DNA of 43,137 bases. Source: a virus. Taxonomy: Duplodnaviria; Heunggongvirae; Uroviricota; Caudoviricetes. The position numbers were made by a program. Position 1 is the first letter of the stretch, and each line of letters opens with the position of its first letter. This document shows positions 21,001 through 24,000 of the stretch, in pieces. The stretch is from IMG/VR virus record IMGVR_UViG_2721755646_000007. One strand, 5' to 3'.

Positions 21001-24000
21001 TGTTGTTCTGCGGGGCCGGTTTTTCGATGACATTTTCTTTCCTCTGGTGACAAGCTATATGGCGAGGATTTTACATGGCTGTGCTTCGTACGTTACCGGG
21101 CAGAATCAAAACTCTGAACACCCGGCGGGTGAATATTCTGAAGGGTGAACAGCGTCGTGTCAGTGGCAGTGCACGTGTTTCCCTCAAGCGTCATATCTGG
21201 CTCAGGGATGCCGGGCAGTGCTGTCTCTGTGGTCGTGTGGTTGACCTCTGTGACAGTGAACTCGATCACCGAATTGCACTTCAGTTCGGTGGTGGTAATG
21301 AGGAGACGAATCTCTGGACGCTCTGTACCGAATGCCATCGACAAAAGTCTGCTCGTGAAGCGGCGGGTGGTATGCCGGACCCGACGCTGCCGGAGGTGTC
21401 CGGAGGTCATGGCAGGGCAGACGATATCATCGGACTGTGACCCGCCCCGGGGGGGGGATCATCCGGCGAAAAAAACGATCGCTCCGGACACCGCGCCCCC
21501 TCTCACGCAGAGAAAAAATTCCCGTTTCAGGGCAGTTAACATGTTAACTGGCTGTCCGGGCATTTTTGCGGTTTTTATCTTTATTATTCAGTTTGTTGTG
21601 CGGAAAAAATGTTAACTGGCTTTTTCAGCAAATGTTAACCAGGCAGCAGTTAACATTTGCGGCATGAGATGCCGGGAAAAATGGGCTGAACCATACCCGG
21701 CTGAGTGCGTTCTGGACCCGGGAGGAGGCTGTGCTGACAACGCAAAAACGAAAATTTGCGCTGGCGCTCATGTCCGGGAAAAACAAAACAGCGTCAGCCA
21801 TTGCCGCCGGTTATTCGGCGAAGACCGCCAGGGTTAAAGGCTCGCAGCTGGCAAAAGATCCTGAGGTGCTTGCGTTTATAGCCCGTAAACAATGCGAGAC
21901 GGTGGAGGTGGATGAGGTTCCTGTTTACCGGCAGAAAAAATCAGAGCAGGAGGATAAACCCCGTCGCCGTGAGGCGGCTGCAATACCACAGCCGGACGAA
22001 ACAAATCCGGAGATGCCACCGCCCGTGGTGATATCTCCTGGTATTGAGTATATGGAGGACGGTCTTCCCGATCCGGTGAAAGCGATGGGGCGTCTTCTGG
22101 TGGAGAACATTAATACCGACCCCAGGCTGGCGCTGGATGCGGCTTATAAGCTGGCGCAGTTCACGCACCACAAAAAAGGGGATGCCGGTAAAAAATCGGC
22201 AAAAGGTGACGCGGCGAAAAAAGCGGCTAACCGTTTTGCGGTGCCACCACCACCCCGCCTGGTGGTGAATAATGATAATGAGGGCAACGGATGATACCTG
22301 TGTGGAGCACGGCCTGCCCGGACTGGGCAGAGCGCCTGAAAAAGGGGCTGTCGATTATTCCGGCTCCGATTTATCCGGAGCAGGCCGCACATGCCCTGGC
22401 GATTTTTAAACAACTGCGGATTGTGGATGCACCGGGCAGCCCGACGTTCGGGGAGTCCTGCGCACAGTGGGTGTTTGACCTGGTGGCGGCCCTGTTTGGC
22501 TCCTACGATGCGCAGACCGGTGTACGCCATATCAAGGAAGTTTTTATCCTTATCCCCAAGAAAAACAGCAAGTCCACGCTGGCTGCCGGGATCATGATGA
22601 CGGCGCTGTTACTGAACTGGCGGCAGGCGGCGGGCTACACCATTCTGGCCCCGACCGTGGAGGTGGCGGCTAACGCCTTCAACCCTGCCAGGGATATGGT
22701 ACGACGGGACGATGATCTGGATGACCTCTGTCAGGTGCAGACACATATCCGGACCATCACCCACAGGGTGACGGACACCACCCTGAAGGTGGTGGCTGCC
22801 GATCCGAATACGGTATCCGGTATCAAGTCCGTGGGGACGCTGATTGATGAACTGTGGTTATTTGGCAAGCAGTACAAAGCGGAGGACATGTTACGTGAAG
22901 CCATAGGCGGCCTTGCCTCCCGCCCGGAAGGGTTTGTGGTGTATACGACCACCCAGTCGAATGAGCCGCCAGCCGGGGTGTTCAGACAGAAACTGCAGTA
23001 CGCCCGGGATGTCCGTGACGGCAAAATTCATGATCCGCACTTTCTGCCGGTGATTTTTGAGCATCCTCCTGAAATGGTGGAAAGCGGGGCTCACCTGCTG
23101 ATGGAAAACCTCGCCATGGTTAACCCGAATCTCGGTTATTCGGTGGATGAGGCTTTTCTGTACCGGGAGTACCGTAAAGCCCGGGAGGCTGGTGAGGAAG
23201 CATTTCGTGGCTTCATGTCAAAACATGCCAATGTGGAAATTGGTCTTGCCCTGCGTTCTGACCGCTGGGCGGGTGCGGATTTCTGGGAGCAGCAGGGCAG
23301 GCGCGTCAGCCTGGACGATATCCTGCAGCGCGCTGATGTGGTGACGGTGGGGATTGACGGCGGGGGCCTGGATGATCTGCTGGGAATGTACGTGATTGGC
23401 CGTGACAGGGAAACCCGCGAATGGCTGGGCTGGGGCCATGCCTGGGCGCATGAAACCGCGGTGGTCCGACGGAAGAGCGAGGCGTCCCGGTTTCAGGATC
23501 TTGTTGCCTGTGGAGATATGACCATTGTCCGGCGTGTCGGGGATGACACGGCGGAAGTGGCGGAATATGTGCGTCGCATTCATGAGGCTGAGTTACTGGA
23601 CCATATCGGTATTGACCCGTCAGGGGTGGGGCAGATTCTGGATTCACTGGCGGAAGCCGGGATCCCCGACGGAATTGTGGTGGGGATAAGCCAGGGCTGG
23701 AAACTGGGCGGGGCCATTAAAACCACCGAGCGCAAACTGGCTGAAGGGGTGCTGGTGCATGGTGACCAGCCCCTGATGGCCTGGTGTGTCGGCAATGCCC
23801 GGGTGGAGCCTAAAGGTAACGCCATTCTTATCACCAAACAGGCCAGTGGACGGGGAAAAATTGACCCGCTGATGGCGCTGTTCAATGCGGTCTCCCTGAT
23901 GTCCCTTAACCCGGAACCGAAAAAGAAAGAATATGCGGTTTTTTTCATATAACCCTGTTCACACTGTAACCATCATGAACCGCTGCGGCGGTTTTTTTAT

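Follow-up and report, generated by a model that had tools for sequence, protein, structure and literature searches.

A repeated-site array next to the cos cut of enterohaemorrhagic Escherichia coli lambdoid prophages: a probable cosB-type recognition element for an SF6/SPP1-type small terminase

In phage lambda the packaging-recognition element cosB occupies ~120 bp and comprises three sites for the small terminase subunit (TerS), R3, R2 and R1, of which R2 is inverted, with a site for integration host factor (IHF) between R3 and R2 (PMC4669245). Phage N15 relies on one critical site, with an accessory one inside its terS gene, and the packaging specificities of lambda and phage 21 are distinguished by matching differences in the TerS recognition helix and in the R sites (PMC4669245; PMC6739421). 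The TerS site of HK97 is a single 15-bp element at +15 to +29 (PMC11331095; Kala et al. 2014, cited there). For SPP1 and SF6, TerS recognition at multiple contact points on the DNA near the cut has been described, and specific binding has been hard to show in vitro (PMC9611059). Here we analyse the region upstream of terS in a virus of the class Caudoviricetes, IMG/VR record IMGVR_UViG_2721755646_000007; the whole stretch of 43,137 nucleotides is referred to as the window. Between the genes for an HNH endonuclease and TerS it contains an array of five short sites (Table 1), which probably constitutes the cosB-type packaging-recognition part of the prophage cos (cohesive-end site) and would be read by TerS. 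No earlier description of this array was found in the literature searched (GTTAAC/terminase/cos, cosB/HNH/HK97 and BP-4795 cos).

All the elements that an earlier note on this DNA had described, namely five GTTAAC motifs upstream of terS including a palindrome, are present in the window, and their position between the HNH and TerS genes was likewise borne out. One detail had to be amended: both blocks of the pair written as AAATGTTAACC-N8-AGTTAACATTT are there, but the gap between them is 7 bases, not 8. Besides the palindrome, the array contains AAATGTTAACTGG at 21607–21619 and an inverted pair made up of GCAAATGTTAAC (21628–21639) and GTTAACATTTGC (21649–21660), the GTTAAC hexamers of which are separated by 9 nt. 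The true repeat unit is an oriented 8–10-mer, (A/C)ATGTTAAC, arranged in the order −,+,+,+,−. The octamer ATGTTAAC occurs six times in the 43-kb window against an expectation of 1.27 ± 1.10, a count reached in none of 100 shuffles, and five of the six copies lie inside 122 bp (21535–21656); the GTTAAC hexamer itself is found 16 times, against 8.7 expected. Some array variants carry six sites instead of five. Elsewhere in the window, at 4104–4124, GTTAACCAGTTAACAATTAAC presents three TTAAC copies 8 bp apart, distant from cos and without the ATG that flanks the cos motif.

The window is a BP-4795/2851-type lambdoid prophage of enterohaemorrhagic E. coli (EHEC) with an HNH/TerS/TerL packaging module. 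Its cos region is 97–99% identical to those of Shiga toxin (Stx)-converting and related EHEC lambdoid phages (BP-4795, 2851, 1717 and the Stx1a/Stx2a/Stx2c prophage series), and many of the phage records with a cos region of this type are Stx-converting phages. Of 5,426 complete E. coli genomes, 1,287 have such a cos region, and one genome can hold as many as seven copies. Since conservation at 97–99% identity is by itself uninformative on function, mapped genome ends and diverged relatives were sought. Fetched loci, among them TerS relatives from many Enterobacterales and IMG/VR contigs, are denoted below by L-numbers (e.g. L149).

Genome ends were taken from Lys8385Vzw (MT225100), a phage that was induced and sequenced from particles and is nearly identical to the window near cos. 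Lys8385Vzw is a cos phage with 3' cohesive ends CGCCCCCCCT, mapped by PhageTerm (PMC7946995); such defined ends are at odds with headful (pac) packaging. The record begins with CTCACGCAGAGAAAAAATTCCCGTTTCAGGGCAGTTAACATGTTAACTGG, ends with GATCGCTCCGGACACCGCCCCCCCT (terminal part GGACACCGCCCCCCCT) and starts 31 bp ahead of a palindrome identical to that of the window; over the 260 bases read from the left end a single one differs from the window, outside the five sites. Judging by this near-identity, the packaged left end of the window would start at 21502. With the ends transferred in this way, the array occupies +32 to +155 within the first-packaged end and terS starts at +230. The cohesive end TGCCCGCCCC of SfI/SfIV was not used, being a different end that belongs to a different packaging module. 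Terminase recognition was one of two roles that the earlier note had proposed for the motifs, and the genome end 31 bp upstream of the first site supports it, together with the selection on the cores, the joint switch with a TerS helix and the retention by a satellite that are described below.

The predicted cut falls within a cos core that is nearly invariant across the Enterobacterales relatives and recognisable in Burkholderia Bcep176-group phages; three records of the latter, which encode a distant TerS relative, begin no more than 7 nt from the homologous point. An A-tract is conserved at +9 to +20 from the left end. Every relative, and the satellite too, has a G-run upstream of the cut, and its spacing is maintained although the intervening sequence may differ. 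Its length ranges from ~7 to 13 G among the sampled copies (window 21449–21457 and homologous positions, L089–L208), and it marks a mosaic junction, the similarity of several phage matches starting exactly there. In PPompW prophages (L223 1146–2604; PPompW_132418, LC567822.1) the IS110-family insertion sequence (IS) ISEc20 abuts the G-run and occupies the place of the lysis genes and HNH, so that cos and terS follow directly after tRNA genes and the IS; presumably these prophages cannot cut cos on their own.

The same layout is known from HK97, which shares with the window the order HNH–cos–terS–terL, a G9 run 42–44 nt before the cut (42 nt separate it from the genome end in HK97, 44 nt in the window), a GACC-GC-rich cut giving a 10-nt 3' overhang and a recognition element just downstream of the cut. 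The two differ in that element, which in HK97 is one 15-bp site and in the window would be five repeated sites of predicted helix-turn-helix type. No sequence similarity could be detected between HK97 gp1 and the window TerS, and the HK97 binding mode is therefore not transferable. The HK97 site is reportedly read through an arginine clamp and A-tract shape.

The diverged relatives allow the array to be viewed against its closest counterparts. Among phage records, all but 14 of the tblastn matches to the window TerS belong to the EHEC group at an identity of at least 90%, and the relatives listed below 60% are Burkholderia Bcep176-group phages. Common to the fetched loci is a ~100-bp cos core, the conservation of which exceeds that of the coding DNA to its left and right. 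Most of them have a compact layout, in which terS begins 42–43 nt downstream of the point where the core motif CCCCCTCTCA starts (21497 in the window), the first terS codons are ATG TTA AC and a near-palindrome, GTAAACATGTTAAC or GTTAACGTGTTAAC, spans the start codon; Salmonella FSL SP-016, found through DNA similarity, is a relative of this class. In the expanded layout of the window the palindrome is at the same position, the real terS start (GTGCTGAC...) lies ~190 bp further on and three extra sites intervene. Among the fetched loci of known organism, the expanded layout is seen only in E. coli. An intermediate, third arrangement of the same motif is found in L120 and L123, with two to four direct GTTAACC/GTAAACC copies upstream of terS, 40–80 nt after the cos core; in L120 the copies start 10–13 bp apart. 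The earlier note had stated that absence of the motifs from syntenic prophages would refute it. The free-standing array is indeed absent from syntenic relatives in other Enterobacterales, but in these the motif spans the start codon of terS and recurs within the gene.

Seven diverged GTTAAC-type arrays (the window, L149, L165, L211, L212 and the satellite copies L087 and L146) were aligned. Within 21533–21660, 37 of 38 motif-core columns are invariant, compared with 40 of 90 other columns (Fisher p = 1.4e-9, a value that overstates independence since the sequences are related, though core and spacer contrast visibly in the alignment). Purifying selection acts on the motif cores. Outside the cores a T-tract run is also conserved, and the leader (21661–21730) diverges freely among the variants. 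Pattern scans of IMG/VR for arrays with other motifs at sites 4 and 5 gave no matches.

In a rare E. coli lineage, represented in 12 of the 5,426 genomes, ATGTTTAY replaces ATGTTAAC at every site. Loci of this type (L086, L214–216, L220–222 and L210, the last cut off upstream with three sites visible) have TATAAACATGTTTATA in place of the palindrome, AAATGTTTAT or AAATGTTTATACC at site 3 and AAATGTTTAC-N9-GTAAACATTT at sites 4 and 5. An identical A-to-T change is found at every visible site, and order and orientation are kept in the full-length loci. Five parallel site changes point to one reader, the specificity of which differs between the lineages. TerS changes jointly with the sites: GTTAAC arrays are always accompanied by a helix ...KTARVKG and ATGTTTAY arrays by ...KSARCKG, T33S and V36C being the only substitutions in the helix-turn-helix (residues 19–41) that are confined to the ATGTTTAY type. 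The TerS family profile matches the DNA-binding domain of the SF6 small terminase (3ZQP, E = 2.4e-4; 4ZC3; 2CMP). In an AlphaFold model residues 1–50 have predicted local distance difference test (pLDDT) values of at least 90, with helices at 4–14, 19–25, 33–41 and 44–56, and the best structural match of the N-terminal part is again the SF6 domain (4zc3; template modelling score, TM, 0.85; root-mean-square deviation 1.6 Å). Given the modelled helix 33–41 and the SF6 match, residues 33 and 36 lie at the beginning of the predicted recognition helix.

The joint switch also bears on whether a component other than TerS, such as HNH, TerL, a host factor or a phage protein outside the fetched flanks, might read what would still be a cis-acting packaging element. 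HNH and TerL both act at cos, and co-variation with TerS could be due to linkage, the array abutting terS. However, neither protein tracks the motif. The HNH of L220/L222 is identical to that of the window at 117 of 121 residues and the cos core there is of the window type, yet the sites are ATGTTTAY; the TerL of L214 is 96.6% identical to the window protein (500 residues), yet its sites are ATGTTTAY as well, and the TerL of the GTTAAC-type locus L212 is merely 87.8% identical to the window's. Both motif types occur in E. coli, and a host factor therefore cannot explain the switch. TerS, in turn, is the component with a recognised sequence-reading helix-turn-helix, which makes a different reader improbable.

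A satellite island provides a further line of evidence for recognition at the DNA level. In E. coli CH427, a 9.6-kb island with att-like repeats at its bounds lies between yljB and clpS (NZ_CM166357.1, ~639.9–649.5 kb; L209 7873–17503). It encodes an integrase, a small helix-turn-helix regulator, an Icd-like protein, a RepA helicase, a YlcI/YnfO protein and its own ClpP-like protease/capsid fusion, and its annotation shows no gene for a terminase, a portal or HNH. The cos core and the full set of five GTTAAC sites are found ~90 bp inwards from the right end of the island, together with the G-run at its usual spacing. This cos DNA is 80% identical to that of the window; the similarity stops just after site 5, and no gene lies downstream of the array. 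IMG/VR contig L146 has an identical arrangement, and the satellite cos with its flanks is present in 29 of the 5,426 complete genomes. An island dependent on a helper terminase has thus kept exactly the array stretch, which argues for a packaging signal in the DNA and against a function as terS leader. The E. coli phage-inducible chromosomal island EcCICFT073 (PMC6739421) is likewise a small island with a helper-type cos near one end and no annotated terminase gene. It differs in that its own cosB is distinct and the helper TerS is redirected by Rpp (PMC6739421), whereas the CH427 island carries a copy of the helper's entire array and, in addition, a protease-capsid fusion gene of its own.

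The second role proposed in the earlier note was that of an operator of a dimeric regulator, such as the nearby ribbon-helix-helix (RHH)-like DUF3950 protein (YlcI/YnfO), which would control terS and the head genes. Palindromes and inverted pairs are typical of operators, the DUF3950 gene lies ~500 bp upstream, and the satellite also encodes a YlcI/YnfO-family protein. Lambdoid late operons are transcribed by read-through from upstream, and neither a forward sigma-70-like promoter nor a terminator was found in or adjoining the array (21441–21730), the sole promoter-like match, which lies on the minus strand, being made up of the motif. The DUF3950 protein also fails to track the motif: its N-terminal segment (RNIRFPN.MIE.INIAL) is identical in GTTAAC-type and ATGTTTAY-type loci, and arrays remain intact in L221, which lacks the gene, and in L086, where it is frameshifted. 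BLASTP detected no similarity to window proteins in the satellite capsid fusion or in the satellite YlcI/YnfO protein, the comparison of the latter with the window DUF3950 included. These satellite proteins are therefore uninformative on the helper phage, but the idea of DUF3950 as reader is weakened, the satellite array being the same; no gene follows the satellite array. The operator proposal thus found no support, and we consider it extremely unlikely.

Repeats acting in RNA, as alternative hairpins of the terS leader that control translation or transcript stability, deserve just as little credence. Late transcripts are expected to cross the region, and sites 3, 4 and 5 are able to form mutually exclusive 12-bp stems. 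However, the fold of 21525–21740 has no exceptional stability (z = −1.5; 17 of 200 shuffled sequences fold equally well), and an Rfam scan of 21300–21900 at E ≤ 1 matched no family. Pairing beyond the motif is not kept between variants, only (A)AATGTTAAC being conserved; site 3 changes along with the others even though it is unpaired, and the satellite array has no gene downstream.

Under terminase recognition by TerS, packaging would proceed as follows. Terminase and the HNH protein would cut at about 21492–21501, leaving a 10-nt 3' overhang, and the DNA to the right of the cut would enter the capsid first. Its first ~155 bp would present an abutting inverted pair, a T-rich spacer with an IHF-like element, a single site and a second inverted pair. 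Each copy of (A/C)ATGTTAAC would be read by the N-terminal helix-turn-helix of the SF6/SPP1-type TerS; we infer TerS to be the binding protein, and an oligomer of it would bind several copies together on bent or wrapped DNA, positioning TerL and HNH at the cut so that packaging begins. By analogy with lambda I1 (PMC4669245), an IHF-type bend possibly lies between the site groups. The candidate element, ATTCAGTTTGTTG (also given as ATTCAKNNNGTTR; 21586–21598), agrees with the consensus WATCAANNNNTTR at 11 of 13 positions; in an alignment of eight variants and in further loci its ATTCA and TTR parts are kept and the four N positions vary.

The likeness to lambda cosB extends to several features: the array lies between the cut and terS on the first-packaged side, spans ~120 bp and consists of repeated short sites, some of them inverted, and an A/T-rich element, a candidate IHF site, parts the first site group from the rest. 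As with lambda and phage 21, natural alleles of the window family differ jointly in the sites and in the predicted TerS recognition helix. As in the lambda/N15 group, the relatives are simple or complex, some have an accessory site inside terS (like rR2 of N15), and satellites copy or alter the site. The differences are equally clear. The window TerS is an SF6/SPP1-type Terminase_2 protein and not a winged-helix protein of the gpNu1 type, the predicted ends are 3' overhangs of 10 nt, produced together with an HNH partner, instead of 12-nt 5' overhangs, and there are five or six sites instead of three, the first two abutting as a perfect palindrome. With an SF6-like TerS and 10-nt 3' overhangs, the array would work like cosB without being a member of the lambda cos family. 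The DNA-binding domain is homologous, by profile and fold, to that of SPP1/SF6 G1P; those phages package by the headful (pac) mechanism with contacts on both sides of the cut, whereas the window is cos-type with all sites on one side.

Several observations weigh against recognition of the array by TerS. The centre-to-centre spacings of the sites (8, 68, 23 and 15 bp) follow no simple helical repeat, and the IHF-like element has two mismatches to the consensus. The HK97 site lies closer to the cut than the window sites (+32 to +155), albeit in a sequence-unrelated TerS. The link between residue 33 and the motif is imperfect in compact relatives: L012 and L196, which have S33, carry TGTTAAT, and L018, L105, L113 and L204, also with S33, carry internal TGTTAAC. 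Residue 33 as sole determinant was rejected, because the strict rule fails there, and the claim is limited to the contrast of T33/V36 with S33/C36 among expanded arrays. Since the array is 75–200 bp from terS, co-inheritance of motif and TerS could be linkage, and the motif switch may be a single evolutionary event.

Table 1. Features of the cos region and its neighbourhood in the window
Feature	Position	Strand	Remarks
DUF3950 protein (YlcI/YnfO, RHH-like)	20806–21033	−	~500 bp upstream of the array
HNH endonuclease	21075–21440	+	Pfam HNH, phrog_589; directly upstream of cos as in HK97-type packaging modules
G9 run (C4 before it)	21449–21457	+	44 nt upstream of the cos cut; conserved cos element
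cos core GGACACCGCGCCCCCTCTCACGCAGAGAAAAAATTCCCGTTTC	21486–21528	+	holds the cleavage site and the A-tract
Predicted 10-nt 3' cohesive end CGCGCCCCCT	21492–21501	+	inferred through near-identity to Lys8385Vzw
Sites 1 (−) and 2 (+)	21533–21550	.	18-bp perfect palindrome CAGTTAACATGTTAACTG, +32 to +49 from the left end
T-tract-rich spacer	21551–21605	+	IHF-like element ATTCAGTTTGTTG at 21586–21598; candidate bend between site groups
Site 3	21607–21616	+	AAATGTTAAC, +106 to +115 (position +108); core invariant in diverged variants
Sites 4 (+) and 5 (−)	21628–21660	.	inverted pair GCAAATGTTAAC-N9-GTTAACATTTGC, +127 to +159 (positions +131, +148)
Leader	21661–21730	+	weakly conserved; Shine-Dalgarno GGGAGGAGG at 21720–21728
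terS	21731–22294	+	Pfam Terminase_2, phrog_641; proposed reader of the sites; N-terminal helix-turn-helix residues 19–41
Predicted terS recognition helix (residues 33–41)	21827–21853	+	within terS
TerL	22291–23952		
Prohead protease/major capsid fusion	24016–25953		

The compact relatives also contain sites inside terS. The hypervariable linker of their terS genes includes an island of fixed nucleotides, AAT GTT TAY ACC CCA GCN GTA AAC (N-V-Y-T-P-A-V-N), at +203 to +229; among ~40 distinct sequences the synonymous positions of GTT, ACC, CCA, GTA and AAC barely vary, and the flanking codons change freely. Read as DNA, AATGTTTAY-ACCCCAGCN-GTAAACA is an inverted motif pair with a 9-nt spacer (e.g. 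L083 ~1799–1825), the same geometry as that of sites 4 and 5 of the window, with which it matches at 19 of 25 aligned nucleotides. From its sequence it looks like a terminase site within the terminase gene, comparable to rR2 of N15. In some other compact terS genes a lone GTTGTTAAC stands at roughly that position (+217 to +225) instead. The window terS itself has GTAAACA at 21885–21891 and TGTTTAC at 21922–21928 (codons ARKQ and PVYR), 37 nt apart and of the ATGTTTAY, not the GTTAAC, type; these may be relics of the internal pair. In a Proteus mirabilis terS (L017 ~3200–3315), four GTTAAC plus GTTAAT copies in ~110 bp of linker encode V-N repeats and may form another in-gene site array.

A segment of the window spacer, 21591–21609, matches the terS codons for AFIERKKK (~48–54) of a compact relative with a local score of 23 (mean of shuffles 13.8, maximum 20). 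Together with the in-gene pair, this similarity suggests that the expanded array could have arisen as an upstream copy of the first third of terS that decayed except for its binding sites. The array might accordingly be read as a mere relic of duplicated terS 5' ends, or of a small insertion, with no function and with regularity by accident; besides the 21591–21609 match, sites 1 and 2 correspond to the ancestral terS start ATG TTA AC, and sites 4 and 5 resemble a terS coding segment. A relic should decay evenly, yet the cores are invariant while the spacers vary, all cores switch jointly in one lineage and the satellite kept exactly the array stretch. A non-functional relic is therefore very improbable, and relic origin and present function can be compatible. 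A more far-reaching scenario can be put forward tentatively, and we regard it as rather doubtful: sites that once lay across the terS start and linker may have been freed from coding and multiplied into a lambda-like cosB, the alleles ATGTTAAC-T33/V36 and ATGTTTAY-S33/C36 being mutually exclusive packaging specificities.

Recognition of the array by TerS, which we favour, would have a parallel in the lambda/21/N15 story, with complex and simple cosB, an accessory site in terS and mimicry by satellites, in an unrelated terminase lineage. The system is also tractable for the study of SF6/SPP1-type specificity, as it offers 8–10-bp repeats, two natural alleles differing at two helix residues and inducible phages. 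Sites that mark DNA for packaging help to decide which prophages, defective prophages and satellites mobilise together. If the two alleles are indeed mutually exclusive, they would decide which co-resident EHEC prophages and satellites can be cross-packaged.

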